A DNA stretch of 64,000 nucleotides from a virus. The number at the start of each line of letters is the position of its first letter. The first letter of the stretch is position 1. A model generated the notes under the pieces. The model made no database searches and was not told where the DNA came from. It was given only the letters and a program-made list of their open reading frames with translations. Shown in pieces: positions 37,706 through 59,793 of this stretch. The DNA is taken from the IMG/VR virus record IMGVR_UViG_3300033149_003115, positions 49,898 to 113,897 of that record; one strand, written 5' to 3'. Position numbers and translations under genes: made by a program.

Positions 37706-38782
37706 CTATAGGCTTGCAGCTCCATATTCTCCCTGCTTGGCATTCACTATCACTCCTATGGCATTATCATCAGATACAGCCATCTCCCTCTCAGCCCAGA
37801 AGTGATAGAATACACTATCATAGTCAGGCTTGATCTCCTCATTTCCATCAAGGTCCCTCTTGATCACATCATACCCCAGTCTACTGGAGTCCACTAGTAT
37901 CCCAACTCCCTCAGGGACATTGGCAGAGCTCACTACTTTGAGATCCACTATCTGTCCCAGCTCTCCATTGAGCTTGTCATCCTTACCAGCATATAGCCTC
38001 TCATGTACAAACAAGGTCTGAGTGTCTGGATCGTATAGCAAGGTGGTGACCTCTGATGGATGTACCAGCAACACATCAGGGTGAATAGAGTTACTGATCA
38101 GGGTACTCCTAAGGTTCAAGACATCCCATATCTTGAGGTATTGCTTGGTGTTAGCATCCAGGTAAAACCCATTGCTCCTACATCTATCTGAATATAAGAA
38201 AGTCAGAGTACCAGATGATATAGATGATGTGAGCAACACCTTACCACTATAATAATCAACAGAGCTAACAGTGGCTCCTGATGGCACAGATGATATGCTA
38301 ATAACAGGGGTCAAGGTGGTACTACCCAGAGTACCCCCAGACCATGATGTTATGCTCCCAGTCTTTAGATCCAGGGCTATGGTCTGAGCCCGCTTATCAA
38401 GCTCATCAGCATATTTCTTCCCTACCATGTACACAGCATCTTTCAATAGATCCCTGGCTGTTGACTCTAACACCTCCTTGGGTATTTCTAGTCTAACACC
38501 AAACTTAGCAACATCAACAGTCAGAGCATCATATGAGAATGAGGATGGGGGCAATGTGGTGTTCTCCCCAACATCAGATGACACTACAATATTGTCCTCA
38601 AGCTTGGGGATCTCCAGTCTCCTGCCTGGACTCCTCAAGAAGTCCTTGTTCTCTCTAAAGAGCTGAGTAAAGACTACTTCATTCCTAGCAACATCATCTA
38701 TAGTCTTAGCTATCACCTTTGGAGTAATAGCCTGGACATCAGCTGTCCCCAGTGCCAGCTCCACTATCTCCTTACTATTCAT
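37706..38782 (-). CDS. major capsid protein 2 (paralog)
   Basis: Collinear with 36006 (LALGTADV, RLGYDV.KRDL.G, KPDYDSV.YHFWAER). Confidence 0.85.
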   Translation of the reverse strand: MNSKEIVELALGTADVQAITPKVIAKTIDDVARNEVVFTQLFRENKDFLRSPGRRLEIPKLEDNIVVSSDVGENTTLPPSSFSYDALTVDVAKFGVRLEIPKEVLESTARDLLKDAVYMVGKKYADELDKRAQTIALDLKTGSITSWSGGTLGSTTLTPVISISSVPSGATVSSVDYYSGKVLLTSSISSGTLTFLYSDRCRSNGFYLDANTKQYLKIWDVLNLRSTLISNSIHPDVLLVHPSEVTTLLYDPDTQTLFVHERLYAGKDDKLNGELGQIVDLKVVSSANVPEGVGILVDSSRLGYDVIKRDLDGNEEIKPDYDSVFYHFWAEREMAVSDDNAIGVIVNAKQGEYGAASL

Positions 38783-43642: not shown

Positions 43643-46600
43643 CTATCTATCTCCTCTACCTTATAATCTGATGTAACAATCTTGGGATATGGCTTTCTAT
43701 TATAAGTCTTCATACCATAGTAATACCCCTTCACATACACACATTTGTAGATATTAGCCAAAGGACAGGCTATAGGGTATTTGAGATGCTCTATCTTGAC
43801 CTTGGTTAGCTCTTCATTCCTAGGTTTAATAAATATCTGCTTAAGAGGACATATCCGCTTATCTTCAGAGAATGGACAAGGGGGTAGCCTGATGATGACC
43901 TCAGGTTCTATACTTTCCAGTTCTTCCATAGATAGTGACCTAATATCCTTAGGAGCTGGTCTGGTCCTAAGCTTAGCTATCCTCTCTACTGTAGTCAGAG
44001 TATCAGGTTCGGTCTTGTCAGCTCTTTTCTCTTTAAAGAGAGGAAACATCCAAGTATATTTCATCTTACCATCTTCATTTACATATTTCCTTATTCTAAT
44101 AGGCATTACAGTTATTATATCTCCTCTCTTACACTTGACATCAGTGGCATAAGTCTTCCCTATAATAGCATAGTGTTTACCCCTGTACTCAACCACGTTG
44201 TCCTTCTGGAACTCATTAACTTTATTCTCAGGGATCAAGTATACTGAAATATACATATAGTTACCCATAGGCTCTCCAGTCTTGGTCCTCTTCTTCTCCT
44301 CTTTATCCCACACCATGACATCTATTTCCTTTAGGTTCTTGAGTTTACACATTCTCTCTGAACGGTTTTCTCCTTTGTACTTGATAGGATATAATAAACT
44401 AGCTGCTTTAGCAACCACACCTTCACTACCATTATAGTTCCTCATCTTTCTAACAGCATCTATGAACTCTTTAGGAGTTGTAGCAACTATGGATCTAACC
44501 CTGTCTAGATACCTAGCATCTTTAGGTACCACTTTATCAAGGATCTTAAACCTCTCAGAGTATGGTTTATCCACTAATGTCTCTCCATCTAGATACATTA
44601 TATCATAGAAGACATACACCACCTTATCCTCAAACCCTTCAGGAACTTTACCAGAAGTGATAACAGCTGTGTCCTCTCTCTCCATGAGCGGATACCTGTC
44701 TCTCTTGATCCTAGCTGACTTGACCTTGACATTGCTAGGTATTTTGAAAGCTACCATTTCCCCATCCAGGATACATTCATCACACTTTAGCTTCTCCTTG
44801 ATCTCCTTAACAACATTGGGGAACTGACTAGCTCTGTCCCTTTGTCTATCCTCAGTTATTATTTTCACCATGTCCTTGCTCTTATCAATGTGTAATTGGA
44901 GCCTCCTCCCATCAACCTTCTCCTGAACATATATCCCCTCATCCAGGTATCTCTTAGCCCATTTCTCATACATATCCTGGGGATCAAAGAACTCATATTT
45001 GAAAAACCCTGACTTGGGTTTAAGTCCTATAATTGGTTTACCAACCTTAAGCTTGGTGTTTCTAAGGATGACATTCTTACTGAGGTCTCTATAAGGACCA
45101 AACCCTCTAACAAAGTCATCCTTAGGCACTTTGATCAGCCCATAATGATATGCTGGGTAGCTCATACCTATTGAAGGACCATTAGGGTCAAACACTGGAT
45201 GAATAAGCTTAGCTAACCACGAGGGCTTGATCTCTTTTATAGCTTTTATCACCCTGGGATCTGGGTACTGTCTAAGAACCAAGTCCTGATCATGGGTCTT
45301 GTCAGCTTTACCCTCATTGGCTCTTCTACCAGTGAAGTAAGCTGCCCAGGGTTGTCCTCTGATAGGGATAATAGATGGAGCTGCATTGTAGATATCTTCT
45401 ATAGTGATCTCACCCTCTGGTTCTGGTACATCATCATCCTCTTCTGATAACCCCTTGATTGTTGGGTATTCAGTCACCTCTAACTCTATAGCTTTTTCCA
45501 GGATATTGTCTCCTCTATATTTCTCCCATAGTCCTCTCTTGAACATTTCTATTCCTACAAAAGTGGCACTATCTTGGATGTTCTCAGGTATTCTATTTGG
45601 CTCATCAGCTGTTTCTTTAGCTCTTTCTACTAAGAACTTCCATACATCTACAAGCTCCTTATCCGTTAACTCTTTAACAAATACTATATCAATATCTTCT
45701 ATCCTCATACCTTCAGGTAGCTTCCATCTTAGTTCCTTGCTCTCTTTCCATGGAATCTCCTTACCATATATCTCTATAGCTTTCCTAAACCCCTCAGCTG
45801 CATATTTGGTATATGTCTCTGGTCTGTTGAACTCAAACCCTCTCCTGATCATTTCTGGCAATAGTTTCTTAGCTATAAACCACACCATGTCGTCTTCTTT
45901 CCAGTTCTTGTACTTCTTTCCCTGTCTCATGTTAGAATAATGTCCTAGTGCTAGTCTAAAGTCATCCCCAAGCTGTTTCTTACTTACCTTTCTAGGATCA
46001 TAAGTCTTAATGTCCATGAATAACCAGTCCACAGCTCTATCACAGCTGGTTCTACTTAGATGTTCTAACCCTCTATCTATCATTTCCTTAGCTATCATGA
46101 AATGCATCTCACAGCAATCTGATAGTAGATCTCCACATGAATGGAAATATGCATGATAATACTCCAGATCAGATAAGCTCATACTCCTGGGAGTGATGAT
46201 CTTGATCTTATCATATCCCACAAAGACCTGTGCTCCTCGAGGAACTCTAATAGGCTTAGGAGCTGGAAGCTTGGTGAACTTAAATTCATAAGCATATAGT
46301 TTGTCTTTATCCCTCCACCACTCCCTGTACTCTTCACTTGTTATTCTATGCCTGTCCCTGAGCTTATCAAATTCTTCCTTACTGATCTCTCTAGGCTCTT
46401 CTAGGGATATTATACCATAAAGTAGCTTATTATCTATCAAGTACATATCCTCATTGACATGGGATGTGAACTTCTTAGACTTAACTATCAGGGTCTTCTT
46501 ACCCTTGTAGATCAGATCAGCATGTCTAGGGACCAGGTACAGACATGTCTTGATCCCTGAAGGGAATACCTTAGGAGTTATAGCATCAACATCAGAGGGT

Positions 46601-46920
46601 TTAAGAGCTAGATCAGAGCTCTTAGGCTCTATGTGAAAATGATAATGATCTTTTATCTTCCTATTTTCAAATCTAAGCTTGTACTTGTCATCACCATAGA
46701 CATCTCTACCTATCCTATGAGCATGTTCCATCATCTTGTCAATCATCTCTTTAGGAGGTCTTGTAGTGTGCTCTCTATACACAACCATAGGGACTTTACA
46801 GGTTAAGCAGTCAGCTATCCAGTAACGTGCTTTGTTAGTGAGAAGATCCTCTCTTTTCTCAGGGTAGTACCAATGAGTCTTCTTCTCTGCTTTACATAGA
46901 TCACACTTAGAACTATTCAT
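43639..46920 (-). CDS. polyprotein: HIT-like, ASCH-like, helical repeats, NTase-like and ATP-dependent DNA ligase domains
   Basis: HYHFH; LIYKGKKTLIVK; FTG...HDQDL; ligase motifs QEKVDG, LDGEMV, FYDIMY, EGVVAK; start ATG 46920 with GAGGAG RBS. Confidence 0.85.
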   Translation of the reverse strand: MNSSKCDLCKAEKKTHWYYPEKREDLLTNKARYWIADCLTCKVPMVVYREHTTRPPKEMIDKMMEHAHRIGRDVYGDDKYKLRFENRKIKDHYHFHIEPKSSDLALKPSDVDAITPKVFPSGIKTCLYLVPRHADLIYKGKKTLIVKSKKFTSHVNEDMYLIDNKLLYGIISLEEPREISKEEFDKLRDRHRITSEEYREWWRDKDKLYAYEFKFTKLPAPKPIRVPRGAQVFVGYDKIKIITPRSMSLSDLEYYHAYFHSCGDLLSDCCEMHFMIAKEMIDRGLEHLSRTSCDRAVDWLFMDIKTYDPRKVSKKQLGDDFRLALGHYSNMRQGKKYKNWKEDDMVWFIAKKLLPEMIRRGFEFNRPETYTKYAAEGFRKAIEIYGKEIPWKESKELRWKLPEGMRIEDIDIVFVKELTDKELVDVWKFLVERAKETADEPNRIPENIQDSATFVGIEMFKRGLWEKYRGDNILEKAIELEVTEYPTIKGLSEEDDDVPEPEGEITIEDIYNAAPSIIPIRGQPWAAYFTGRRANEGKADKTHDQDLVLRQYPDPRVIKAIKEIKPSWLAKLIHPVFDPNGPSIGMSYPAYHYGLIKVPKDDFVRGFGPYRDLSKNVILRNTKLKVGKPIIGLKPKSGFFKYEFFDPQDMYEKWAKRYLDEGIYVQEKVDGRRLQLHIDKSKDMVKIITEDRQRDRASQFPNVVKEIKEKLKCDECILDGEMVAFKIPSNVKVKSARIKRDRYPLMEREDTAVITSGKVPEGFEDKVVYVFYDIMYLDGETLVDKPYSERFKILDKVVPKDARYLDRVRSIVATTPKEFIDAVRKMRNYNGSEGVVAKAASLLYPIKYKGENRSERMCKLKNLKEIDVMVWDKEEKKRTKTGEPMGNYMYISVYLIPENKVNEFQKDNVVEYRGKHYAIIGKTYATDVKCKRGDIITVMPIRIRKYVNEDGKMKYTWMFPLFKEKRADKTEPDTLTTVERIAKLRTRPAPKDIRSLSMEELESIEPEVIIRLPPCPFSEDKRICPLKQIFIKPRNEELTKVKIEHLKYPIACPLANIYKCVYVKGYYYGMKTYNRKPYPKIVTSDYKVEEIDR

Positions 46921-47087
46921 AGATACTCCTCTTGAACTAAATAAGAAAGCTATTGACTTATTAATATTCTCATTGCTTATCTTAATCTTTATATGAAGCA
47001 TCTGATATCTATTAGATTGACAAACCTTCAAGGGAAGGTCTTGTTATAAAGTAAACCTAATAAGTATTAGGAGGTAAGTAAGAGAGA

Positions 47088-48047
47088 ATGTCATACTTTA
47101 CTGACAGATGGATCAAGTTCAAAGAGGAGGATAGCTGGGGAGAGTGGGCAACACCTGACACCTTCCCCAACTACTTGCTAGAATGGTCAGCTACCTCTAC
47201 TGAGAATAAGAGTGAGGAGGATCTAATAGGTGGATCCAGGGACTGGAGGAAAAGAGTCTGGTTAGAAGAGGGAGTGGTTGCTAGATGGTTACAGGAGCTA
47301 GTATCAGCTAAGATCTATAAGTATATCCTGGGATCCAGAACTGGTACAGGTGATACGGTATCTCCAAGTTCAAGTACATATTCTCTATCATCCACATTAC
47401 CATCAATAAGTGTCTATAGAGGGTTATACCCTGATGAGTCTGGTGGAACTTTCAGCTTAGGATACTATGGTCTCAAGGTGGATACATCAGAGCTAACCAT
47501 CGAAGAGTCTGGTGATGTCAGATTAGAGCTTAACTTTGCAGGTAGAGGGGTCACAATACCCTCTGCAATATCCAAGCCTACTCTGGACATGGATGTTGAG
47601 GCATTTGCATTTCATCATTCCTCTATTGACATCATCACAAACACTGGGAGCACCTTGTCATGTTCATTGACTCCTAGGTTAGTAATATCCACTAACTCTA
47701 ACCTAACTGCCAGGTATTCAGCTGGATCTGGCTCATATAGACCAACAGAGCTTAGAGAGGGAGCTTTCCAAGTCAGTGGTAGAATAACCATGAGTGGTCA
47801 GCTCAGCTCTATAGCTTCACAGATCATAAACAGAACTGACAACACTATCAAGGCATACCTTAAGAAGGCAGGAAGCACCATCACATTCACACTAAACAAT
47901 GTAACATTTGATGAGCTTCCAGATGAGATACGGGGACTAGAACCAGTAGAGATAGAAATACCCTTTGTGGCTAGACCTGAATCAGGATCAGATGCCCTTA
48001 CTGTTGTTGAGACTTCCACTACAGCTTATGAAGACCTCCCGATCTAG
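47088..48047 (+). CDS. major tail (tube) protein
   Basis: FKEEDSWG N-terminus, S/T-rich, G.KVDTSEL, VSGRIT; precedes chaperone and tape measure. Confidence 0.75.
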   Translation: MSYFTDRWIKFKEEDSWGEWATPDTFPNYLLEWSATSTENKSEEDLIGGSRDWRKRVWLEEGVVARWLQELVSAKIYKYILGSRTGTGDTVSPSSSTYSLSSTLPSISVYRGLYPDESGGTFSLGYYGLKVDTSELTIEESGDVRLELNFAGRGVTIPSAISKPTLDMDVEAFAFHHSSIDIITNTGSTLSCSLTPRLVISTNSNLTARYSAGSGSYRPTELREGAFQVSGRITMSGQLSSIASQIINRTDNTIKAYLKKAGSTITFTLNNVTFDELPDEIRGLEPVEIEIPFVARPESGSDALTVVETSTTAYEDLPI

Positions 48048-48073
48048 GCTTAGGGAGAAAGAGGTGAGCATTA

Positions 48074-48475
48074 ATGGATGAATCTATCATCTCCTTAAAT
48101 GATATACTCGATAACCCATCTAGGGTCTTGGAGGTGAAGGGGATAGGAAACATTATGGTGAGAGATCCCACTACCAAGGACAGATTAGAAGCTAGGGATC
48201 AAGCTAAGAAGGATCCAAGATGGGAGTCCATGAGCCAGGAGGAAAGGTTAGGACTGATTCAAGATCTCATAGCTATCAAAATGATGGTAGAACCTAAGGT
48301 CACCATAGATGATTATTATAATGCCAACAGTGTCAAGCTCATGAACATCATAGATGCTATAGTGATAGACTACACCAAGAGGTTCCAATCCCTGACTAAG
48401 AAGAGAGAGAAGGAGATTAGGGATTTTTTAGAACTCCTGAGGGAAGGCAATCCAGGGAGTTCTACTACATCTTAA
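48074..48475 (+). CDS. tail assembly chaperone (gpG-like)
   Basis: Between tail tube and tape measure; slippery site near its 3' end. Confidence 0.75.
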   Translation: MDESIISLNDILDNPSRVLEVKGIGNIMVRDPTTKDRLEARDQAKKDPRWESMSQEERLGLIQDLIAIKMMVEPKVTIDDYYNANSVKLMNIIDAIVIDYTKRFQSLTKKREKEIRDFLELLREGNPGSSTTS

Positions 48476-48657
48476 AGTCTAATAGCTATGATTTTAAGAA
48501 AGCATCTGAGATATACAAGAGCTTCACTGACATACAGAGACTATGGTTGTCTGTTATGCTGGAGGAGGAGAAGGGACAAGAGAGATCCCAGTACAAGCTA
48601 CAGGAGACAGCTAACAAGGTGTTTGGAGGTAGAGCAAGGAGGAGGAGGATGATATAA
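48424..48657 (+). other. -1 programmed frameshift (T TTT TTA at 48424-48430) giving a gpGT-like extension
   Basis: The -1 frame is open (RTPEGRQSREFYYILK...RRRRMI) to TAA 48657, 1 nt before the tape measure ATG. Confidence 0.85.
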
Positions 48658-48658
48658 A

Positions 48659-50242
48659 ATGTCATACGATAAGGATATAGGAATAGGTATTAAGATTGAA
48701 GTAGACCCTACCACATTTGAGCAGACTAAGGCTAGATTAACTGAGATAGCTACTGTGCTTGAAAAGATAAGCTCAGTCTCCTCAAAGAAGCTAACCCTAG
48801 CTCTTGATGAGGTATCATCATCAGCTAAGAAGACAGCTCAAGCATCTGCTCAGGCTGGTAGACAAATACAGGAGGGGTTGTCTGTCAATGGTACTCCTTT
48901 GTCATCCCTCATAAACCAGTATTCAAACCTGAACACTGTGGTGTCCGACTCTGATGCAGTGTTTGAGGATCTATGGGATGTCCTGGAGAGGGTAAGAAGT
49001 AAGCAGATGACTGCTAAGAAAGGGATGATGGAGTTCAATGATGTCCTTGGAGCATCCACTCCAGTCGTGAGGATGCTGGTGAAGGGATGGGAAAACGTAG
49101 AGGCTATGGCTAAGCAGATGGGGATCAGTGCAGATGACCTAGCTAAGAGGATGCTAAAAGGAGAGATAGCATACTCCAGACAAAGAATAGGATCAATATA
49201 CCTTAACAGAGCTCTAGCTCAACAAGCTCAGGTCTTCAAGTCTGTTAGACTAGGGATGGGAGCTTATGGAACAGCTCTACAGTCACTGGGTAGGACAATG
49301 TTCTGGGTAGGACTAGGATCAATGTTCATAATGATGTCATGGGCTAGGATGCAAAGGAGAGCTAAGCAAGTCACTGCGTCTGCCTTTAGCTTAAAGAGAG
49401 CCTATGTGGATCTGTATCAGGCTCAGTCTAACCTGAAAGAGACCATGCTTGAATATGGGAAAACATCTAAAGAAGCTGTCTTAGCTCAGCTGAGACTGGA
49501 AGAGGCTCAGATGAGGGTTACCCAAGCTGAGGACAATGTGAGATCAGCTACTGAGCAGAATATTTATGCAACTGCTATGTGGATATTTGGAATGGTTCCC
49601 ACATACATCAGAGCTTCATTTGAGATGACCAGTTCTCTAGCTATGCTGACAGCAGCTAAATATCAGGTAGCAGGAGCCTCTATGGTTGAAGCTGCGGGTC
49701 AGAACGCAGCTGCTGGAGCAATCACTATTCATATCCCATTAATAGGAGGTGTCACACTAGCCTACTGGCAATGGGCACTAGCAATAGGAGCTGTGACATT
49801 TGGTCTTAACATATTAATAGGGTTATTAACACAGCAATACGCCATGAGCCAGGCTGAGGCTAGGATAAAGAAGGTGAGAGAGGAAACAGAGAAGTGGGAG
49901 GATGTATTAACTGGACATTCATTAGTGGACTCTTTAGAAGCTACCAGAAATAAGATGATGGAAACCAATCTAAGTACCAAGGAGCTTTCATATTCATTAT
50001 CAAGATTACCTCTAAGATCTCATAGTCCTCTAGAAATTAAAACCACCAGTGGATGGGTAGAAATGAGTAATCTAAATGCTGATCTCAAAGGGTTAGGAGC
50101 AGTGTCTAGTACTAGAAGTGTTAACATTAGTGTCAATGGACCCTGGTATATCAGAGAAGAAGCTGATATTACCAAAATAGCAAAGAAGATCAAGCAGATG
50201 GAAATGAGAGGTATAAGGAATAGTACTGGAGGCAAGATATAA
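48659..50242 (+). CDS. tape measure protein
   Basis: Ala-rich helical protein with hydrophobic stretches; C-terminal VNISVNG...ADITKIAKKI. Confidence 0.8.
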   Translation: MSYDKDIGIGIKIEVDPTTFEQTKARLTEIATVLEKISSVSSKKLTLALDEVSSSAKKTAQASAQAGRQIQEGLSVNGTPLSSLINQYSNLNTVVSDSDAVFEDLWDVLERVRSKQMTAKKGMMEFNDVLGASTPVVRMLVKGWENVEAMAKQMGISADDLAKRMLKGEIAYSRQRIGSIYLNRALAQQAQVFKSVRLGMGAYGTALQSLGRTMFWVGLGSMFIMMSWARMQRRAKQVTASAFSLKRAYVDLYQAQSNLKETMLEYGKTSKEAVLAQLRLEEAQMRVTQAEDNVRSATEQNIYATAMWIFGMVPTYIRASFEMTSSLAMLTAAKYQVAGASMVEAAGQNAAAGAITIHIPLIGGVTLAYWQWALAIGAVTFGLNILIGLLTQQYAMSQAEARIKKVREETEKWEDVLTGHSLVDSLEATRNKMMETNLSTKELSYSLSRLPLRSHSPLEIKTTSGWVEMSNLNADLKGLGAVSSTRSVNISVNGPWYIREEADITKIAKKIKQMEMRGIRNSTGGKI

Positions 50243-50278
50243 CGATAATTCATAGTCCTCTCATTGAGGTGATGAGAC

Positions 50279-53017
50279 ATGAGTAATCCATCTTTGGAAG
50301 CTAGAGCCTCAGTAGAGTGCTTTCAATCAGTGGGGTATATGAATGATGGTCTACATCCCTATAACTCATCCACATCTCCTTATGGGTTTGTCCTGGATGG
50401 GGCTATGTATAGTACAGACAAAGATGTAGGATCTCTCATCACCACTTATCCAAGCTACACCACAATATGGGCTAACCTCGTATTAAATGACAACACCCTG
50501 AGTGTTTCTGATTATCCTTATGTAATAGTGAGAGGAAAGCAGATCTCAGACTCTGCTAACTGGAAGTTTGGTGTTAAGTACACTGACAATAGTGAGACAT
50601 TCTCTCCTCTATATTCTAACACAACATGGGACAGATATGTCCTAGCTCCAGACACTCTAAAATCCTATCAGTCCATAGCTCTAGCATGTCAGGGGACAGC
50701 TTACTTTGATTATGTGTGTATTTCTAGCACTATCCCAATGACATTACATCCTTTAAGCATGACTGTAGATAGGCTACTAACTGAGGAGATCAGTTCAGCT
50801 GAGATAACACTGGATTACGAGGATGTTAAGGATGTTAGCTTCTTAGGGTCTCATCTCAAGATCTGGTTAGCTAAGGAGACTATAGTCACTACTGAGGACT
50901 ATCATAAGGTTTTCACTGGTAAGGTTGAGAAGGTCTCTAAGACCATACAAGGACACACTCCAAGGGATCTGGTGATCGAGGCTACTGGATATGGGAAGTA
51001 CCTACAAAAGAAGATGTTAGGTCATCTAAAGGTCTATGATGGACGTATTCATGACATAGTTAGAGGTATGGTATCGGATCTGGTGGAGGATGGACTAATA
51101 ACATCTAACAGTATCAGTACATTCTCAGATCACACAAGGAAGAAGCTAACATCCAATCAGTCTGTCTTTGATGCATTGGTGGATCTAGCTGAGGACTATG
51201 GAGCTGACTTCTATGTTGATATTGGAGGAGATCTCAACTTCTTTAGAAAAGGTACCAGGGTGAATACTATCAACATAGATGTTGATGAGACTGTGGAGTA
51301 CCCATACTCAGAGGACATTAATAGCCTTATAAACTACCAGGAAGTGGTTGGTCTAGATGGTAAGACCCTGGGAACTGATCTTGAATACTCAGACTCTACT
51401 GTCAACTGGAGCTGTAGTGGGATCCTGGCTGAGGACACTGATATATATGATCCAGCTGGTAACCCTCCATCCATTAGATGTTCACTCCCCTCTGGAGGGA
51501 CTATATGGTTTGCTAGGGACATGGGAACATTAGATCTCTCCTTGGGAGGAGTCCTCCACTTTAGCTTACAGCTCAAGACATTGAGACCTGAGGATCTCAA
51601 ATCTCCTACTCCTAAGATAAGAACATATTTCATAGGTCCTGAGGGTCAGTACTTTGTTGATGTAGAAGCATCAGGAGGTCTCTCTGCTAGGAGATCACTC
51701 TATAGGTATGATGGGATCGAGTACCCGATGTATGTAAATAACTTCTATTTCTGGTATTACCCAATGACCAGGATAGATATCCCTTTTAACTACAAAGCAG
51801 GAACGGAGGAGCAGACAATAGGGACTAACCCAGACTGGTCTGAGATTAACACTATAAAGGTGGAGATCCTGGATCCCTTACCAAGTACTCTAGCTGTGGC
51901 ATGGCTAGACAACATGAGCATAGATGGTGTGTATTATTCTGCTACGATCAGTAATACCTTGTCTATTAAGGAGTATGGCAGATCAGAGGGAGTACCAATA
52001 GGACCTGATCCCTCTCTTGACACTCCTGATAAGTGTACACTAATGGCTAGCTTGATAGTAGCTACTTACAAGGATCCCATTAGGGTGATCGAAGATGTCA
52101 AGACGATCAGGAGCTTTGATTATAACCTAGGGGATGAATGTACTCTAAGTGTCAAAGAGATGTCTAGTGTTCCAGTCATACTGAGAAACATCAGACATGA
52201 GCTAGAAGGGATGAATTTTGATACTTATCTGACCTTCTCTAAGCGATATATACCATCAGCTGAGAAGCTACTAGCCACAGCTAAGAAGCAGCTAGAGGCT
52301 TATGGATGGAATATAGAGGCATGGAAGAGAGCCAAACAACCAACTAACATCACCCCTACCAGATCTGAGGAAATAGAATTCTGGGAAACAGATCTAGAAT
52401 TTCCTAGAGCAGCTTTAGTCAGTGCAGCTTTTGCAGTTTCATTAGGAGATAGTACAAGCAATTATGAATTAAAACACAGTGAATATTTCAATACATTTGA
52501 AGTGGGTGGAGGCGGATATTATAGACTTAAAGTAGCTAATGCATATGATACTCAACCAGGGTTTCATGCTAAAGGAAGATCAATACGAGGCAATAACAAA
52601 ATACAATTTAGATTTAAGGTAATACCAGATTTATGCAATACTACTATTTCAACAAGACAGATCTATATTGGAATACGAGATCCTGATTCAAGCACTGGGT
52701 ACTCTTTCTATTTTGAAGCTCCACCAGGCACAAGTAATGGTGGTTCGCTGTATTTCAGAATAGATGCTGATACATGGGGTTCTCAAGAAGCAATTGGAAC
52801 ATGGACATCTGGAAACACGTATGATTGTTGGGCTATTATAAATCCAGACATTGATGCAGTTCATGTGTATGTAAATGAACAGTTTAAATGTTCAGTATCG
52901 CCTTTAGTGTCAGGAACTTTTTATCCAATAGATGTCACTACTGCTACTCAGAATGCTACGATGGATGCTACTTTACAGGTAGAAATATTTGGATATCAGG
53001 TAGCTCAGGCATGGTGA
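50279..53017 (+). CDS. baseplate hub/tail-tip protein with carbohydrate-binding-like inserts
   Basis: VFTGKVEKV, DLAEDYGADFYVD, SIKEYGR; follows tape measure. Confidence 0.7.
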   Translation: MSNPSLEARASVECFQSVGYMNDGLHPYNSSTSPYGFVLDGAMYSTDKDVGSLITTYPSYTTIWANLVLNDNTLSVSDYPYVIVRGKQISDSANWKFGVKYTDNSETFSPLYSNTTWDRYVLAPDTLKSYQSIALACQGTAYFDYVCISSTIPMTLHPLSMTVDRLLTEEISSAEITLDYEDVKDVSFLGSHLKIWLAKETIVTTEDYHKVFTGKVEKVSKTIQGHTPRDLVIEATGYGKYLQKKMLGHLKVYDGRIHDIVRGMVSDLVEDGLITSNSISTFSDHTRKKLTSNQSVFDALVDLAEDYGADFYVDIGGDLNFFRKGTRVNTINIDVDETVEYPYSEDINSLINYQEVVGLDGKTLGTDLEYSDSTVNWSCSGILAEDTDIYDPAGNPPSIRCSLPSGGTIWFARDMGTLDLSLGGVLHFSLQLKTLRPEDLKSPTPKIRTYFIGPEGQYFVDVEASGGLSARRSLYRYDGIEYPMYVNNFYFWYYPMTRIDIPFNYKAGTEEQTIGTNPDWSEINTIKVEILDPLPSTLAVAWLDNMSIDGVYYSATISNTLSIKEYGRSEGVPIGPDPSLDTPDKCTLMASLIVATYKDPIRVIEDVKTIRSFDYNLGDECTLSVKEMSSVPVILRNIRHELEGMNFDTYLTFSKRYIPSAEKLLATAKKQLEAYGWNIEAWKRAKQPTNITPTRSEEIEFWETDLEFPRAALVSAAFAVSLGDSTSNYELKHSEYFNTFEVGGGGYYRLKVANAYDTQPGFHAKGRSIRGNNKIQFRFKVIPDLCNTTISTRQIYIGIRDPDSSTGYSFYFEAPPGTSNGGSLYFRIDADTWGSQEAIGTWTSGNTYDCWAIINPDIDAVHVYVNEQFKCSVSPLVSGTFYPIDVTTATQNATMDATLQVEIFGYQVAQAW

Positions 53018-53086
53018 TGATGACTATGGGAGAATTAAATGAATTGAAGAAATCGAATCCATATTTCTGGTATTTGGAATGGAGGG

Positions 53087-53734
53087 ATGCTCTTGTCAAT
53101 AGCAATACCAGCTAGAGTGATCACTAAGATAGGAACACTATTCAAGCGTAGAGTGGAGAACATAGCTATCTATCTACTTACTAAGATAAACATCCTCATG
53201 GTCTACTTGATCACTCTAAAGGATCTTTGTAATATCATCCTCATCCTACCTTTCATCATCAATGTGAATGCGTATATCAAGCTCTTACTAAGAGAGATAG
53301 AGCACCTGATGATCTCTGAGCTATCGAGGATATGGTTAAGGTTTAGTAAGAGCATCTCCATCATGGACAAGATCATTCTACACTTCTACGCATCAAGCTC
53401 AATCATCACTGATAAGATCTTAAACCTTAAGATCAAGATGCCAGAGTCTCTAGAAGTACTGGATCTCCTCAAGATCACTTTAGATCTAGGTAAGAACATA
53501 TCAATAAATGAGATCCTGAACTACTTCCTAGTATGGTCAGAGAGTGTAAATATCTCAAGACATATCAAGCTAAGCCTAAGAGGTCTAGTGGACTCTCTTG
53601 GAATATCAGATGATCTAGGATATAATGTTAAATTATCTAAAGACATAACAATAGAGGACAGTATGAGCTACACTCTACAAGGAGAGTATATAAGGTTCGA
53701 TATTGGTAGATTTGATATAGGGAGGATAGGATAA
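53087..53734 (+). CDS. virion protein with Ile/Leu-rich beta-strand repeats
   Basis: Repeated [KE]S[IL]x[IV]xD pattern; ends RFDIGRFDIGRIG. Confidence 0.5.
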   Translation: MLLSIAIPARVITKIGTLFKRRVENIAIYLLTKINILMVYLITLKDLCNIILILPFIINVNAYIKLLLREIEHLMISELSRIWLRFSKSISIMDKIILHFYASSSIITDKILNLKIKMPESLEVLDLLKITLDLGKNISINEILNYFLVWSESVNISRHIKLSLRGLVDSLGISDDLGYNVKLSKDITIEDSMSYTLQGEYIRFDIGRFDIGRIG

Positions 53735-53735
53735 A

Positions 53736-56159
53736 GTGCCAATTACTCACTCCAGTGTAGCTGTGTCTGGAGAGACACTGTGGGCTAATGCATGGAATGC
53801 TGATCACAAGATAACAGATGTTATACCTACTAGTGTTAATGTTTATGATCTGGGTAGCACTAGCTATGAGTTTAGAAATGCTTACTTAGGTGGGACTTTA
53901 TTCCTTGGTACTAACTCAGATGTAAATTTGTATCGTTCAGGTACGGATATCTTGAAAACGGATGATTTATTAATCTTAGGAGATGGTACTAATAAAGATC
54001 TACTAGTATTTAACACCGAGAGATCCTGGAGATTCACAACCAAAGACACTGGAGCTAGCACTAAATTAATTCTTAAGACTGATGTGAATGCTAAAGCTTT
54101 CCAGATTTGCAGAAACGATGATGAATCAATACTTTCGATTTATGCTAACACTCTTGATCCTGAAGTTACAGTCAATGGAAGCTTAATTGTAAATGATCAG
54201 CTTCAGCTCCCTGTACAAGGATCAAGCGGTGGTATACTGATAGGAGGAGATGTTCAGTTATACCGTTATGGTGCTAATGTTTTAAGAACACCAGATCAAA
54301 TAGATGTTGAGACAAAGATATGGTGTGGTGGACCTGTTGATGCTGAGAGATTGTGGATAGGTGGAACTGAAATAATAGATAGCTCAAGGATACTGAAGAA
54401 TATTGCTTCTATTGCTCAGAGTCTTCTTCCAGATGCGGATAACACGAGAGATTTAGGAAGTTCAAGCTATAGGTGGAGAGACTTAAGACTCTCTGGGGAT
54501 GCCTATATCGGTGGTGATGCTCTTATAAGTGGTGTTCTGGACAATCCATATATCAATGCTTATTCAAGTGATTATGGACTCGTTCTTTACTTACCATTTG
54601 AAGAGGGAACTGGAACTTCGGTCTATGACGAATCTCCTCATGGGAATGATGGAACTGTTTATGGTACTCTTTCTGGAACGGTTTACGGGGCATCTTGGGT
54701 TGATGGAAAGTATGACAAGGCTTTAGGCTTTGATGGTGATAACGACTATGTGGAACTGTCAGAACCTCTAACTATTTTTGATAAATCTTTCACAGTTTCC
54801 ATGTGGGTTTGGGCAGATTCAACGATTTCTGGAAGATGGGGGATTCTTCTTGGTGATTATAATCTTGGAGGAATAGATGTTAATTTTGAAATAGTCGAGA
54901 ATGGCAAAATACGATTTTATTGGGCTGGAAATCCAGATCTCAGAGGCACAAAGACTCTGGAAACGGAAAAATGGTATCTCATAACTTTTGTCAGGGATAA
55001 AGACGCTGAAACAGTCAAGGGTTATGTTAATGATGAGCTTGACATTAACTATAGTGGGGCAATATCTGATAAGACTGCAACCGTTCCACATAGAATTGGC
55101 AGAGATGCAAGAACGGGTGATACTGCTTTCGGACCAGGTATTATCGATGATGTTCGTATTTATAACCGAGCCTTAACTGAAGAGGAAATCCAGCAACTAT
55201 ATCAAGGCAAGGACATCGGTGGTGGTCGTGTTCTCTGCTTACGCTTCGATGAAGGAGAAGGTACTACGGTTTACAGCGATAACTGGTGTGATGGGAAGTA
55301 TGGGAAGGCGTTGAGCTTCGACGGCGAAGACGATTTCGCTCTTATAGACGACTCACCATCCTTGCATATTGCCGATGGAACAATAATATTTTGGGTGAAT
55401 AAACTTGCTAATCACGAAGTTACTGCTGACTTCCTGAATAAAAACAGGGGGGGACGCCATGAAGGTGACTTACATATTGGATTAAGAGCTGACGAAAACA
55501 TCGAGATTTGGCTAGACGATGGTGTAGACGAGCATTATGTTACTTCAGGTGTCCTTGGAGGAGGCTGGTATCACGTAGCTTTCACATTCGGTTCTGGCGG
55601 AATGAAATTGTATATTAACAGCGAACTTGTAGACACCAACGCTTACACGGGAGGAATTGAAAATAATACCTGGAAAATAAGCTTGGGAGCAGGAACAGAG
55701 ATAGGGACGGGACTCTGTAAGGTTGAGGGTTTAGATGAGGTTCGCATCTACAACCGAGCTCTCACACTAGAAGAGATAAGAGCTCTATACTTAGCTGGTA
55801 AATCAAGATATTCCAGAAGCATAGTTGTATCAGATAAGTTTAGAATATTTAGCACTTCTCTATCAGAGCTACTAAGGTTAACAACCACAAATCTAAACCT
55901 CAGTGTGTCACTCTTGCCATTATCAGATAGTGTTTATGACATTGGATCATCGAGCTATAAATGGAAAAACCTGTACATCACTAACACTATTAACTTTGGT
56001 ACAGACACCAACCTATATAGGAAGTCAGCTGATCTCTTAGCAACAGATGATGACTTTGATTTCAATCAACATCAAGCTAAGCAGTTTGTGATAGAGAACA
56101 GAACCAGTGATCCTAGCTCTCCAGTTGAGGGACAGCTATGGATCAGGACAGACCTATAG
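53736..56159 (+). CDS. tail fibre/receptor-binding protein with two LamG (ConA-like) domains
   Basis: DVNLYR and DLGSSSYRW fibre repeats; LYLPFEEG, GKY..AL.FDG, DDVRIYNRAL twice. Confidence 0.85.
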   Translation: MPITHSSVAVSGETLWANAWNADHKITDVIPTSVNVYDLGSTSYEFRNAYLGGTLFLGTNSDVNLYRSGTDILKTDDLLILGDGTNKDLLVFNTERSWRFTTKDTGASTKLILKTDVNAKAFQICRNDDESILSIYANTLDPEVTVNGSLIVNDQLQLPVQGSSGGILIGGDVQLYRYGANVLRTPDQIDVETKIWCGGPVDAERLWIGGTEIIDSSRILKNIASIAQSLLPDADNTRDLGSSSYRWRDLRLSGDAYIGGDALISGVLDNPYINAYSSDYGLVLYLPFEEGTGTSVYDESPHGNDGTVYGTLSGTVYGASWVDGKYDKALGFDGDNDYVELSEPLTIFDKSFTVSMWVWADSTISGRWGILLGDYNLGGIDVNFEIVENGKIRFYWAGNPDLRGTKTLETEKWYLITFVRDKDAETVKGYVNDELDINYSGAISDKTATVPHRIGRDARTGDTAFGPGIIDDVRIYNRALTEEEIQQLYQGKDIGGGRVLCLRFDEGEGTTVYSDNWCDGKYGKALSFDGEDDFALIDDSPSLHIADGTIIFWVNKLANHEVTADFLNKNRGGRHEGDLHIGLRADENIEIWLDDGVDEHYVTSGVLGGGWYHVAFTFGSGGMKLYINSELVDTNAYTGGIENNTWKISLGAGTEIGTGLCKVEGLDEVRIYNRALTLEEIRALYLAGKSRYSRSIVVSDKFRIFSTSLSELLRLTTTNLNLSVSLLPLSDSVYDIGSSSYKWKNLYITNTINFGTDTNLYRKSADLLATDDDFDFNQHQAKQFVIENRTSDPSSPVEGQLWIRTDL

Positions 56160-56171
56160 GAGATATGAGAC

Positions 56172-56936
56172 ATGTCAGAGACTATTAGTCTAAGAGTACG
56201 GGTCTACCATGCTGGTAAGATCAGGACACTGAGGGAGAGTACCGCTAGTCCTCTAAGATTAAACATAGGAGGAGAGACTTACTATCTGGAGCTAGTGGAA
56301 CCAACCAATAGGTTTTCCAGTCCTGTCAGAGTGTATCACGGAGGACAGGTGTGGGCTATAGCCTATGGAGATATTATAGTACTTGTAGAATCCCTTGTCA
56401 TAGACGAGTTCTTGAAGTTAGTGTTAAGGTTAATTAAGAGCATTACGGTCCTAGAAAAGCTAAAGATAGACACAATAATCAAAGAGATCATTAGTGTAAC
56501 TAGACATCTTAAAATGAGGTTAAGCTTACCGAATGAGATCATGTCGATCATGGATATTCTCAAGCTCAGACTAAGGATGAGCAAAGCAATTGATATAGCA
56601 GAGGACTGGCTAGCTGAGAAGACATGTGCTACCTGCTATAGCTGTGATACATGTCAAATCTGTGATTCATGTGAGACCTGTGTAACCTGTGAAACCTCTG
56701 AAGTATGTCCATCCTGTGAGATCTGTAACACCTGTGATGTTTGTGACACCTGTCAAAGCTGCATTGGTTGTCAACACTGTGTGGTCTGTTATGGAAGCTG
56801 CTACACATCTTGTCAGAGCTGTTACTCGTGTATGGCTTGTGAGACTTGTGATGTATGTGATTCATGTCAGAGCTGTAATGTGTGTGACGCATGTGATGTA
56901 TGTGAGGTCTGTTATGCTGACTTCTACATTTCATAG
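56172..56936 (+). CDS. virion-associated protein with C-terminal (Cxx)n array (31 Cys)
   Basis: N-terminal SPLR/SPVR repeats, aliphatic repeats, then CATCYSCDTCQIC... Confidence 0.8.
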   Translation: MSETISLRVRVYHAGKIRTLRESTASPLRLNIGGETYYLELVEPTNRFSSPVRVYHGGQVWAIAYGDIIVLVESLVIDEFLKLVLRLIKSITVLEKLKIDTIIKEIISVTRHLKMRLSLPNEIMSIMDILKLRLRMSKAIDIAEDWLAEKTCATCYSCDTCQICDSCETCVTCETSEVCPSCEICNTCDVCDTCQSCIGCQHCVVCYGSCYTSCQSCYSCMACETCDVCDSCQSCNVCDACDVCEVCYADFYIS

Positions 56937-56951
56937 AGGAGTGATGAAAGG

Positions 56952-57269
56952 ATGACAATTAGCTGTACCAATTGTGACACGTGCCAGAGCTGTGTTGTGT
57001 GTGAGGTTTGCTATTCATGTGATGTCTGTGATGCTTGCAATACATGTGTGACCTGTCAGACTTGTGATATCTGTGAGCTATGTGATGTCTGTGATTCATG
57101 CAACACTTGTGAATTTTGTCATTCCTGTGACTGGTGTGTAGTTTGTCAAGCTTGTAATTCTTGCCAGTCGTGTGTGACATGTGAGAAGTGTGATTCATGT
57201 TTTAGCTGCTATAGTTGTGAGAACTGTGACTCGTGTGAACTATGCGTGACCTGTCAGCTGGTGATATAG
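56952..57269 (+). CDS. Cys-every-third-residue protein (33 perfectly phased Cxx units)
   Basis: MTIS(Cxx)33VI; GAGGAGTGA RBS. Confidence 0.8.
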   Translation: MTISCTNCDTCQSCVVCEVCYSCDVCDACNTCVTCQTCDICELCDVCDSCNTCEFCHSCDWCVVCQACNSCQSCVTCEKCDSCFSCYSCENCDSCELCVTCQLVI

Positions 57270-57285
57270 GGAGTGAGTTATAAAC

Positions 57286-58566
57286 ATGTCAAGATGTATA
57301 GAGTGTGAGGTATGTGTAATGACACAAAACCCTAGATGTTCTAGCTGTTACACCTGTCAGAAGTGTGTGACGTGTCAGATCATGAAGGGGAAAGGAGATG
57401 GAGGAGGACTAACCAGGGGTCCTTATCCAATTACTGGGATAACATTGTTCCCAACAGATCACTGTAACTTTAGATGTACCTACTGTTTCACTTATGAGTA
57501 TGAGAGAGAGTTCACTGGTAGGATGAACTGGGATACAGCTAAACAGTCCATAGACTTCCTTCTAAAGAACTCTGGTAACAACAGAATGGTGAGCATACAC
57601 TTCTTTGGTGGAGAGCCATTATTAGAATATGATCTAATAAAGAGAATGGTAAAGTATGGAGATAGAGAAGCTAAGAAATACAACAAGGAAATACGATGGG
57701 GTATGACTTCAAACTGCTCATTGATAACAAGGGATATTAACAGCTTTCTTAGAAAGCATAAGTTCAAGATCCTAGCTTCAATCGATGGATGGAGAGAATC
57801 TCACAATACTCACAGAGTAGATAAAGAGGGTAAAGGAACCTTTGATAGAGTTATCAGAGGAATAAAGATGTTGAAAGAATGGAGAACACCAGAGCTGAGA
57901 TGGACTCTTACTCCCCAGACATTGAAGTATGTGTCTAGTGACATTAGAAAGCTTGTAGACATGGGCTTCTCATCATTTGCACTGGAGCCAGTGTATGAGA
58001 TAGAATGGACTGAGGATGACTATGATGAGTATGAGAGGATGTTGAGAGATGTTTCAGATTTTCTCCTTGAACTAGCTGCTAAGAACAAGACCATTCATGT
58101 TAAGCCAATAGTGGATGGTCTACTAGTCTTTCAGCTAAATACCAGGATGAGAGACAGATGTGGACTTGCTAAGGGATCAGTTGGAGTGTCTCCATCTGGT
58201 GAGATATTCAGATGTCATAGGTTTGTAGGACAGTATGCTCACAAGATAGGGGATGTCTGGAAAGGGATAGATGTAGATAAGGCAGCTGTGATCAATAGCT
58301 CATGGGACATTAACAAAGTACATCCAGTCGGTGATGAGGATCAGGAGAAATGTAAGAACTGTAGAGCCAGAGTTATATGTACTGGAGGATGTCTGGCAGT
58401 GAACTATGATCTCTACAAGGATATCTTCACTGTTCCAGAGGTGTACTGTAAGCTGAATGAGATCAAGGTTAAAGTAGCTACAGACTTCTATTTGGAAATG
58501 ATTAATAAGTATCCCCTGTTATTAAATAGATATATGAAGCTAAGAAGGAGAAGGAGCAATAAGTAG
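57286..58566 (+). CDS. radical SAM/SPASM peptide-maturase-like enzyme with an N-terminal (Cxx) segment
   Basis: CNFRCTYC, FFGGEPLL, SIDG; full SPASM CGLA...RCHRF...CKNC.....CTGGC...YC. Confidence 0.9.
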   Translation: MSRCIECEVCVMTQNPRCSSCYTCQKCVTCQIMKGKGDGGGLTRGPYPITGITLFPTDHCNFRCTYCFTYEYEREFTGRMNWDTAKQSIDFLLKNSGNNRMVSIHFFGGEPLLEYDLIKRMVKYGDREAKKYNKEIRWGMTSNCSLITRDINSFLRKHKFKILASIDGWRESHNTHRVDKEGKGTFDRVIRGIKMLKEWRTPELRWTLTPQTLKYVSSDIRKLVDMGFSSFALEPVYEIEWTEDDYDEYERMLRDVSDFLLELAAKNKTIHVKPIVDGLLVFQLNTRMRDRCGLAKGSVGVSPSGEIFRCHRFVGQYAHKIGDVWKGIDVDKAAVINSSWDINKVHPVGDEDQEKCKNCRARVICTGGCLAVNYDLYKDIFTVPEVYCKLNEIKVKVATDFYLEMINKYPLLLNRYMKLRRRRSNK

Positions 58567-59019
58567 ATGGAGGAGCATATCAGGATTAAAGAACGTCTTA
58601 GACTGGTGGTCCAGGACAAGAAGACTCACAAGATCATAGAGGAGAAGATAATAGAGCCTAAAGTCTCCAGGTGGGGTAAGTTCTTAGCAAGGATCCTTGG
58701 TAAAGAGGTACATGCCACTGTTTTAGACTATGGGAAGGAGATGGCAGCTAAGCTATATGGTGGGATATCTCCAGCTTATTCTATAGATCAGATAGGGACT
58801 GACAATGGAGGATGGAAATCAGCTACCAGAACCTATGAAGCTGTTGGTACTCTAAGAGTAGATAACAGCCTGGATCCATGGACCACATCTGGTCAGTATA
58901 ATTGGATAAAGTGTAGAAGCTCAGGTGATACTGTTAATACCCATAACTCTATCAAAGTGGATATTGATATCAGCTCTGGACAACAGTGGTGGGCTGAGGT
59001 ACAATTTGTGTTTAGCTAG
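58567..59019 (+). CDS. putative virion structural protein
   Basis: Beta-rich; similar to the domains of 59041. Confidence 0.55.
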   Translation: MEEHIRIKERLRLVVQDKKTHKIIEEKIIEPKVSRWGKFLARILGKEVHATVLDYGKEMAAKLYGGISPAYSIDQIGTDNGGWKSATRTYEAVGTLRVDNSLDPWTTSGQYNWIKCRSSGDTVNTHNSIKVDIDISSGQQWWAEVQFVFS

Positions 59020-59040: not shown

Positions 59041-59793
59041 TTGAAAAAGGATATGTCTTTAAACTTTGTAATAAGGGAGATAATAGGATACACCATAGTG
59101 GAAGATGATGAGATAGTGGAAACTGGTACTATCCAAGCTAACACCGTTCTGGATCATACCTTTGAGTCTATTATTAGAGCTCTGGCTAATGATAGTTGGA
59201 ATGCTAACACTTTTTCTTTATCTACTCCTCAGCTAGTGCTCAAGAATGACCTTGGACAGTTATCAACTCAGGATGCTTCAAAGGAGCTCCAACCATCTGG
59301 CGTCTCATCTGGATCTGCAACACTGGTGATAAGTAACACAGCTTCACCTTTCTCTGGTCCTGGTACTTTCGTAACAGTTCTAACACAGAATGCTAATTAT
59401 CCAGGAGGGTATTTCAACTCTATATCAGCATTTACTATTGCTATAGGGTCAGGACAAGAGATCTCTTTCACTATTAAGGATATATTCTCAGATCTTAACA
59501 ACTATGGGAACTGGTATTGTGGGGATATATTGTATGGTAACCAGAGCTCCATTACATCAGGTGTATGGGTTAATACAGGATTACAAGATAGAACAGTCTC
59601 AGTTGATTGCTCTAGAGATGGTAACACCTTAACAGTCACAACAACCACCAGTCCTCCAATAGATGAATATAATATTTATTCTGTTGTCCTCAACTATGAT
59701 AAGAAGTTCCATGCTTTCATTGCGGCATTTGATGTGGATCTCCAGCCAGATCAAGAGCTTTACTCAGAATCTAAGTTCGTCTTCTCAGCTTAG
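59041..59793 (+). CDS. putative virion structural protein (two repeats of the 58567-type domain)
   Basis: NTVLD...; repeat ends GQEISFTIKDIFS and DQELYSESKFVFS versus GQQWWAEVQFVFS. Confidence 0.55.
   Translation: MKKDMSLNFVIREIIGYTIVEDDEIVETGTIQANTVLDHTFESIIRALANDSWNANTFSLSTPQLVLKNDLGQLSTQDASKELQPSGVSSGSATLVISNTASPFSGPGTFVTVLTQNANYPGGYFNSISAFTIAIGSGQEISFTIKDIFSDLNNYGNWYCGDILYGNQSSITSGVWVNTGLQDRTVSVDCSRDGNTLTVTTTTSPPIDEYNIYSVVLNYDKKFHAFIAAFDVDLQPDQELYSESKFVFSA

Follow-up and report, generated by a model that had tools for sequence, protein, structure and literature searches.

Two length-matched cysteine-array proteins and an adjacent radical SAM/SPASM enzyme in a viral tail gene string: a candidate system for thioether stapling

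The cysteine-array genes and the neighbouring enzyme

The stretch of DNA analysed here (hereafter the window) comprises 64,000 nucleotides of the IMG/VR record IMGVR_UViG_3300033149_003115 (positions 49,898 to 113,897). That record, of 113,897 bp, is a complete viral one bearing direct terminal repeats, and the window takes up its final 64 kb. Between positions 56172 and 58566 it holds a trio of genes on one strand: two open reading frames (ORFs), ORF A and ORF B, whose products carry long arrays in which a cysteine recurs at every third residue, (Cxx)n, and a gene for an enzyme of the radical S-adenosylmethionine (SAM)/SPASM type. The genes form a tight same-strand string and GGAG-type ribosome sites precede both ORF B and the enzyme gene. 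An initial annotation, made from the letters and their translations, had described the trio as a ranthipeptide-like system built into the tail module, in which the enzyme would introduce dozens of thioether bridges into a fibre or spike of the virion. The features on which the following analysis rests are:

56172..56936 (+), ORF A, 254 aa, long-leader (L-type) array protein
ORF A residues 1-151, non-array carrier part
nt 56625-56912 (+), (Cxx)n array of ORF A, residues 152-247, 31 Cys
56952..57269 (+), ORF B, 105 aa, short-leader (S-type) array protein, with its array at nt 56964-57254
57286..58566 (+), radical SAM/SPASM enzyme, 426 aa, putative array maturase
57295..57375 (+), mini-array tag of the enzyme (Cys 4, 7, 10, 18, 21, 24, 27 and 30), containing the conserved CSSCYTCQKCVTC
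nt 57376-57429 (+), Gly-rich linker after the tag, residues 31-48
57463..57486 (+), CX3CX2C (C60, C64, C67), the radical-SAM [4Fe-4S] cluster motif
58159..58449 (+), SPASM region with seven Cys: C292-x12-G305-x4-C310; C356-x2-C359-x5-C365-x3-C369; C388

Recounting confirmed what had been reported for the two arrays. ORF A ends in 31 phased Cys, whose spacing of three is broken only by a gap of 6 and by two of 4, and ORF B, which starts with MTIS before its first Cys, contains 33 Cys between residues 5 and 101, with all gaps exactly 3 and four non-array residues at its end; likewise, the residue after Cys in ORF B is D/E in 15 of the 33 units and D/E/N/Q in 23 of them. The arrays of ORF B and ORF A thus measure 33 versus 31 Cys and 101 versus 103 aa, respectively. 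Within the window, runs of at least four phased Cys are found solely in ORF A, ORF B and the enzyme gene, and Cys codons make up some 3% of the neighbouring tail-gene stretch (by a rough single-frame count), so that chance can be excluded as the origin of the pattern. Tandem Repeats Finder reported merely 63-82% matching units, which implies that the arrays are diversified coding sequence and not the product of recent DNA slippage. All invariant columns in an alignment of ORF B with the S-type arrays of 14 other loci (see below) are Cys.

Homology searches with the single proteins yielded little. Neither ORF A nor ORF B matches a Pfam or NCBIfam model; the array of ORF A is matched by PHROG 15341 (function unknown), and residues 73-144 of its carrier part constitute a repeat that is common to the tail-module ORF at 53087-53734 (BLASTP E 2e-6). 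ORF B found no match in the ESM Atlas or in a word-based homologue search, and its AlphaFold2 (AF2) model, built from a 15-row alignment, reached a predicted local distance difference test score (pLDDT) of 43, i.e. no usable fold. Single-protein searches for related loci came back empty for ORF B and for the enzyme; such loci were collected by profile-based searching.

The enzyme belongs to the SPASM subgroup by motif, alignment and fold. Radical SAM proteins hold their SAM-cleaving [4Fe-4S] cluster by CX3CX2C in a partial TIM-barrel core, to which the SPASM subgroup adds the seven-Cys consensus CX9-15GX4C ... CX2CX5CX3C ... C for two auxiliary clusters. All seven SPASM Cys are invariant in the enzyme alignment and their three segments align with those of CteB; the Pfam model for the radical SAM domain (PF04055) scores 64.9 bits against a cut-off of 29.5, and the Pfam SPASM model PF13186 found no match to the enzyme at E <= 0.1. 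The best match in the PDB at the sequence level is CteB (5WGG, E 1.6e-45), with residues 52-398 of the enzyme aligning with residues 99-445 of CteB. The AF2 model has a pLDDT of 83.5 (above 90 in the core), and its best fold match is again CteB (5WHY, E 3.5e-27), with the anaerobic sulfatase-maturating enzyme anSME coming second. Residues 1-98 of CteB, which form its RiPP recognition element (RRE; RiPP, a peptide made by the ribosome and modified post-translationally), lack a counterpart in the enzyme, and the first 46 residues of the enzyme are unstructured in the model (pLDDT < 50). The description of a radical SAM enzyme with a full SPASM pattern that carries eight N-terminal Cys in the position of an RRE is therefore upheld, with the caveat that the public gene call starts the protein at Met12 (P0001, 415 aa), which leaves five N-terminal Cys instead of eight.

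Among the NCBIfam models the PapB family (NF047865) gave the best match, with 280.6 bits over residues 49-376 (cut-off 340), followed by the SCIFF maturase (TIGR03974, 211.8 bits, cut-off 425), the nif11 maturase (211.0 bits) and QhpD (203.2 bits), the latter two also below their curated cut-offs. Lower scores were obtained for RumMC (140 bits), the maturase of the CXXX-repeat system (TIGR04115, 132.8 bits, cut-off 350), anSME (TIGR03942, 117.7 bits, cut-off 349) and the CrpC family (TIGR04463, 101.6 bits, cut-off 525). This ranking, together with the CteB match in the PDB, bears out the earlier assignment of the enzyme to the PapB/CteB/QhpD type. Sequence and model together support its placement within the thioether-forming SPASM group and make it a new, RRE-less family of the SPASM peptide and protein maturases. 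In two of its homologues (L034, 6735-9059 (+); P0005) the sequence is interrupted, at or just after CX3CX2C, by an intein with a LAGLIDADG endonuclease.

Clade-specific coupling, array pairs and the link to the tail

Scanning viral, genome and metagenome contigs with profiles gave about 240 related loci, and the coupling between enzyme and arrays was assessed by scoring the enzymes against a profile of the clade and by looking for phased Cys runs nearby on the same strand. Of the enzymes that score at least 300 bits against this profile, 49 are accompanied by arrays and three are not (nine were not evaluable because of contig ends); below 250 bits the numbers are three with and 126 without (11 not evaluable). 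A FastTree phylogeny of 216 rows places the window enzyme in a clade of 65 rows (SH-like support 96), in which arrays adjoin the enzyme on the same strand in 53 cases, ten loci are cut by contig ends and two are without arrays. In the clade loci inspected, the arrays lie directly upstream of the enzyme. The coupling is therefore specific to the clade and near-obligate within it. The same trio recurs in more than 50 related DNA stretches. The condition that the initial annotation had named as refuting, homologous enzymes devoid of Cxx arrays, does not refute its reading within the clade, where two of 65 lack arrays, and applies only to distant relatives that belong to other systems. The array family as such is rare, since a profile of the short array retrieved 179 cluster representatives among 1.84 billion proteins.

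Three further observations concern arrays that depart from this pattern or the way in which they were sought. In an uncultured archaeon (L203, 4252-5778, on a 389-kb contig) a lone protein of 508 aa with a looser C-terminal array precedes an enzyme of the clade; the contig is apparently chromosomal and the gene could be a cellular or proviral form that lacks a partner array. Another period-3 array, C-[TIV]-[ND]-C, in which the second position is the polar one, is present in the viral contigs L105, L164, L172, L183 and L185 and sometimes spans several ORFs of a contig. A scan for an 8-Cys DNA pattern, which is to be read as a sample and not as a census, produced mostly simple 9-bp DNA repeats among the matches listed.

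Nearly every locus encodes two array proteins, and these fall into two conserved types according to the sequence that precedes the first Cys. The S-type starts with MSIDIRT, MDIRT or MA directly before that Cys, and the L-type has a longer start, MSIDIRRRAVKTIDVKDVE and variants thereof, which in several viruses follows a large protein as ...EDLQSxGxx[FY]; the junction of ORF A, ..KAIDIAEDWLAEKT, resembles the L-type junction of relatives. The junctions measure 2-20 residues and the substrates 70-1700 aa. It had been proposed that recognition is leaderless. This does not hold strictly, for the relatives share short conserved junctions (MSIDIRT and MSIDIRRRAVKTIDVKDVE, each followed by Cys). 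An RRE would not fit into any member of the clade, since mostly fewer than 40 residues precede CX3CX2C. A short precursor with a leader that is read by an RRE, one of the hallmarks by which ranthipeptides are delimited, is accordingly found neither in the window nor in the clade; the other hallmark of that class is a thioether from the Cys sulfur to an acceptor carbon other than the alpha carbon.

The two partners of a locus are matched in length, a pairing that the initial annotation had not noticed. Over 30 loci, in which the arrays range from 20 to 101 Cys, the Cys counts of the partners correlate with r = 0.993 and differ by a median of 3%, and the correlation of array length persists in 14 non-overlapping phylogenetic contrasts (r = 0.976). 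Moreover, in 21 of 33 loci both partners show one and the same super-period, of 10, 15, 16 or 22 residues. Recent duplication was considered as the main cause of this match and rejected, as the identity of partners at non-Cys positions (0.40) barely exceeds that between arrays of different loci (0.36) and both leader types are kept throughout the clade. Selection for equal length, and hence a side-by-side pairing of the two chains, is the simplest reading.

The Cys-rich N-terminus of the enzyme recurs in the clade as a mini-array tag, C-x-x-C-[FY]-[TE]-C-[QE]-x-C, after which comes a linker rich in Gly or in Pro/Gln. The initial annotation had presented it as a part of the enzyme, which is true of the window (CSSCYTCQKCVTC) but not of the clade at large: the tag is fused to the N-terminus in only 11 of the 65 members, the window included, and constitutes a separate small ORF between arrays and enzyme in at least 34 of the 56 other loci. 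A viral enzyme outside the 65-row clade (L021) has the tag at its C-terminus.

The composition of the arrays was determined for 101 distinct array proteins with 4,470 Cys. The gap between successive Cys is 3 in 78% of cases. The residue directly after Cys (x1) is Q in 29%, Y in 15%, D in 13%, E in 12%, N in 9% and V in 9%, so that the preference for D/E/N/Q noted earlier for ORF B extends to the whole set (64%); the second residue (x2) is S in 32% and T in 26% (S/T 57%). The arrays contain hardly any K, R, P or G; K/R account for 0.6% of x1 and 4.7% of x2. By virtue of the period, the x1 residue of the next unit falls at Cys +4. This is the CX3D/E geometry of PapB (PMC9413430). Asp, Glu and Thr are known as acceptors for PapB, QhpD, CteB and related enzymes.

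In the window, the trio is located between tail tube and fibre genes upstream and the gene for the large terminase subunit (TerL) downstream, in line with its earlier placement in the tail module:

47088..56159 (+), same-strand tail gene string, ending just upstream of ORF A
47088-48047 (+), tail tube gene (Pfam Phage_tube_2, PHROG 290)
within 47088..56159 (+), a 527-aa and a 912-aa protein, both large and with no family assigned
53087-53734 (+), 215-aa repeat protein, the tail-module ORF referred to above
53736-56159 (+), fibre-like protein, 807 aa, with two Laminin_G_3 domains

Besides the Laminin_G_3 domains, the string has matches to virion-structural and tail-fibre PHROGs. In at least ten viral contigs (L004-L006, L008, L009, L021, L034, L037, L115 and L332) the L-type array forms the C-terminus of a protein of 630-1700 aa, and the claim that arrays are part of tail proteins is in this sense substantiated by fusions in related viruses. 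The slot after the tape-measure gene and one small gene is the usual position of the tail-tip protein, and it is there that the array-bearing protein is encoded in L006, L021 and L037, following a PHROG-typed tape-measure gene; the same gene order as in L006 is seen in L008 and L009, which brings the number of contigs with an array protein after the tape measure to at least five. In L347 and L340, tail-fibre genes lie directly upstream. The carrier domains stem from at least three unrelated families (PHROG 8917, PHROG 18190 and none), which marks the array as a portable module. Among the best 150 of the profile hits, 22 have 250 or more other residues ahead of the array, which in 15 cases ends at most 15 residues from the C-terminus. 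Tail spikes have been listed among the most Cys-rich proteins of viruses of methanogens and methanotrophs, with no link to an enzyme being made (PMC9723712). A glycosyltransferase gene is found upstream of the array pair in L340 (3072-4874, directly before it) and in L331 (314-1366), and glycosylation of the arrays or their carrier is a possibility.

Among the genes of the virus is one for a full-length NrdD, the anaerobic ribonucleotide reductase, with an ATP-cone (17071-19158, +), and the virus therefore replicates in an anaerobe; NrdD itself is too conserved to infer the host. An archaeal host is likely to judge from sequence comparisons, i.e. from the nearest cellular occurrences of the enzyme, which are archaeal metagenome-assembled genomes, from the inteins in two of its homologues and from the matches of the family B DNA polymerase PolB (10490-13078, +), whose best full-length matches among isolates are haloarchaeal tailed viruses at an identity of merely 22-24%. 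TerL has no close relative among isolates. Proteins that are 68-70% identical to NrdD are encoded on other contigs of 110-128 kb, which are probably related viruses.

Several other genes of the window deserve mention. A second radical SAM/SPASM protein (642 aa, 23354-25282, +), to which an N-terminal Anp1-like glycosyltransferase part is fused, lies within an island of higher GC content with further glycosyltransferase genes (21424-23352, GT1; 28216-29340, GT2 plus a dual-specificity phosphatase). The neighbouring genes at 36006-37070 (-) and 37706-38782 (-) both match the major-head-protein PHROGs 544, 1357 and 1650, which suggests that they encode two paralogous capsid proteins, and the head genes are adjoined by a gene for an 1130-aa protein with an ATP-dependent DNA ligase domain (43639-47031, -). 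The two genes that directly follow the enzyme, 58567-59019 (+) and 59041-59793 (+), have no family match; their products end alike at the C-terminus, in ...D[IV]D[IL]...[QK]FVFS (BLASTP E 0.001), and may from this resemblance be paralogous tail-end or receptor-binding proteins.

Proposed mechanism and rival explanations

On balance, we favour the view that the trio specifies partner arrays of matched length that are probably stapled by thioethers through the action of the adjacent RRE-less radical SAM/SPASM enzyme and are carried on the tail, although our preference for it is a modest one. The process could be as follows. The L and S arrays would pair side by side and in register in the anoxic cytoplasm of the host, upon which the mini-array tag of the enzyme, taking the place of the missing RRE, would dock onto them. 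The enzyme would then move along the arrays and turn many of the Cys thiols into thioether bridges, with the beta or gamma carbon of D/E/N/Q or S/T at the other two positions of the unit as the likeliest acceptors; Asn, too, serves as an acceptor of such enzymes. The product would be a covalently stapled, non-reducible rod or ladder, borne on the tail via the N-terminal part of ORF A of about 150 aa, or, in the relatives, by making up the C-terminus of a large tail protein. A plausible gain would be an organelle for host contact that resists proteases and heat and that is cross-linked in reducing water, where disulfides open. In its most specific form, the proposal holds that two chains of equal length are zipped in register by dozens of inter-chain or overlapping intra-chain thioethers into a non-reducible rod at the tail tip, as a redox-proof substitute for disulfides that was evolved by viruses of anaerobes, and that the RRE-less maturase locates its substrate via a mini-array of its own. 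This fuller version is decidedly more tentative and we put it forward with corresponding doubt.

Several findings weigh against even the general form of the proposal. The enzyme stays under the curated cut-off of all named maturase families, and its reaction can therefore not be transferred from any of them by equivalence. The N-terminal part of ORF A shows no recognised tail domain in Pfam, NCBIfam or PHROG. Most metagenome loci have their two arrays as proteins in their own right, 70-350 aa in length and with a short leader-like start, so that we infer incorporation into the virion from the fused subset, and some loci have only glycosyltransferase, NrdD or integrase genes as neighbours and no recognisable tail genes. 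In the contigs with the C-[TIV]-[ND]-C array, no radical SAM gene was present in the stretch fetched. Finally, CxxC repeats are classic metal ligands, and the arrays may bind Zn or Fe-S before, or instead of, being cross-linked.

The last point leads to an alternative that we regard as improbable, namely, that the arrays are metal-binding modules (Zn, Fe or Fe-S), making up a metal-zipped rod or a metallothionein-like store, and that the radical SAM enzyme, instead of cross-linking them, has another task or just uses them as a cluster or electron partner. Dense CxxC is indeed the commonest metal-ligand pattern, S/T at x2 would fit knuckles with NH-S hydrogen bonds, and the Cys tag of the enzyme could hold a further cluster. 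In addition, the operon of the cellular Cys-repeat protein CrpA is induced by pyrite and its authors suspected metal binding (PMC13692751). Nevertheless, metal binding requires no dedicated radical SAM/SPASM enzyme, yet the coupling is near-obligate in the clade; the nearest characterised relatives of the enzyme all make thioethers on Cys-rich substrates, and the bias for D/E/N/Q at x1, together with 15% Tyr, is atypical of metallothioneins. About equally improbable, in our estimate, is that the trio is not concerned with the virion but constitutes a RiPP-like accessory cassette for a two-component toxin, an exclusion factor, a signal or a metal scavenger, either released or kept in the cell. 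In its favour, the two arrays stand alone in most loci and have short, conserved starts of leader type, which is reminiscent of two-peptide sactibiotics such as thuricin CD (PMC12093266), and some loci have integrase, NrdD or glycosyltransferase neighbours. However, the products, with 20-100 Cys and 70-350 residues, are far above the size of known RiPPs, neither a protease nor a transporter was detected among the some 40 neighbouring proteins scanned, arrays end large tail-module proteins in at least ten contigs, and the genes of the window lie inside the tail string.

The arrays could also be subject to a different radical chemistry, i.e. the conversion of Cys to formylglycine in the manner of anSME, epimerisation, or C-C and C-O links via Tyr, which we deem the least probable of the explanations considered here. 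The SPASM group covers diverse chemistries, 15% of the x1 residues are Tyr, and anSME is the second-best fold match, with a score of 117.7 bits; thioether formers, however, score two to three times above anSME, whose target motif C/S-x-P/A-x-R moreover requires an Arg, and K/R are nearly absent from the arrays.

Should the stapling of tail-borne arrays by thioethers prove correct, it would mean that viruses apply radical chemistry of the RiPP type to a permanent part of the particle, and it would explain how extracellular particles obtain cross-links that survive in sulfidic, reducing habitats hostile to disulfides. An enzyme that deals with 30-100 sites in each chain, lacking an RRE and with hardly any leader to read, would furthermore be of interest for the stapling of peptides and proteins, and the matched lengths of the pair suggest a new two-chain architecture open to direct testing.

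Comparison with known systems

The maturation of Cys-repeat substrates by radical SAM enzymes of the thioether type is known as such, but its use in a tail is so far undescribed: full-text literature searches returned no description of cross-links made by a radical SAM enzyme in a virus particle, nor, in the literature searched, of the hardening of a virion by a dedicated enzyme. A survey of RiPPs that set out from RRE-containing enzymes discarded precursors of more than 600 bp (PMC10288494). RRE-based mining with such a limit would miss the array family.

We know of few cases of post-translational covalent hardening of virions aside from the capsid chainmail of the HK97 type, in which an autocatalytic Lys-Asn isopeptide bond is formed in the capsid and neither a separate enzyme, nor sulfur, nor the tail is involved. 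The likeness to the proposal made here lies in a virus that hardens its own particle covalently after translation. In terms of the geometry of the cross-links, thurincin H and thuricin CD offer a parallel, as thioethers join donor Cys at every third or fourth residue to equally spaced acceptors like the rungs of a ladder. They differ from the arrays in being secreted antibiotics of about 30 aa with three to four rungs and distinct donor and acceptor stretches, made by enzymes that bear an RRE and are more distant from that of the window (RumMC 140 bits); thuricin CD is itself a two-peptide product (PMC12093266).

The CXXX-repeat system (TIGR04115) likewise combines a radical SAM/SPASM maturase with a strictly periodic Cys-repeat target, but with a period of 4 where the window has one of 3, and to our knowledge no paired, length-matched targets have been described for it. 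CteA/CteB, the SCIFF or thermocellin system, provides the best match in both sequence and fold, with aligning SPASM segments, and the seven-Cys pattern of the CteB type leaves one iron of auxiliary cluster I (Aux I) free for a Cys of the substrate. Unlike CteB, the enzyme of the window has no RRE, and SCIFF is a six-Cys peptide of about 45 aa, from which the substrates of the window differ. The best-scoring family is that of PapA/PapB (freyrasin, Paenibacillus polymyxa), and the CX3D/E spacing on which it acts is present in the arrays. PapB links Cys to Asp or Glu in CX3D/E, accepts a broad range of substrates and can dispense with a leader (PMC9413430, PMC12715619). In PapA, which is a short peptide, the six CX3D rings are separate, whereas those of the arrays would overlap over 30-100 units of both chains, with a viral protein as the substrate.

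The closest and strongest precedent is that of CrpC and CrpA of Methanococcus voltae (Dieter et al. 2026). CrpC is a SPASM radical SAM enzyme that was found by mass spectrometry to make ranthionine bridges on CrpA, a Cys-repeat protein of 29 kDa with C-x-x-Q/D motifs, for which there is a paralogue, CrpB, with a common N-terminal part (PMC13692751, 2026; the paper mentions no virus). The two systems have in common a radical SAM enzyme with seven SPASM Cys beside a large Cys-repeat protein, two substrate-like proteins, C-x-x-Q/D motifs and an anaerobic archaeal setting, given the likely host of the virus. CrpC has an RRE and CrpA a leader-like part of 47 residues, in contrast to the absence of an RRE and the very short junctions in the window; and the repeat unit of CrpA, a cellular protein with no link to a virion, is 17 residues long, whereas the arrays of the virus present a Cys at every third residue.

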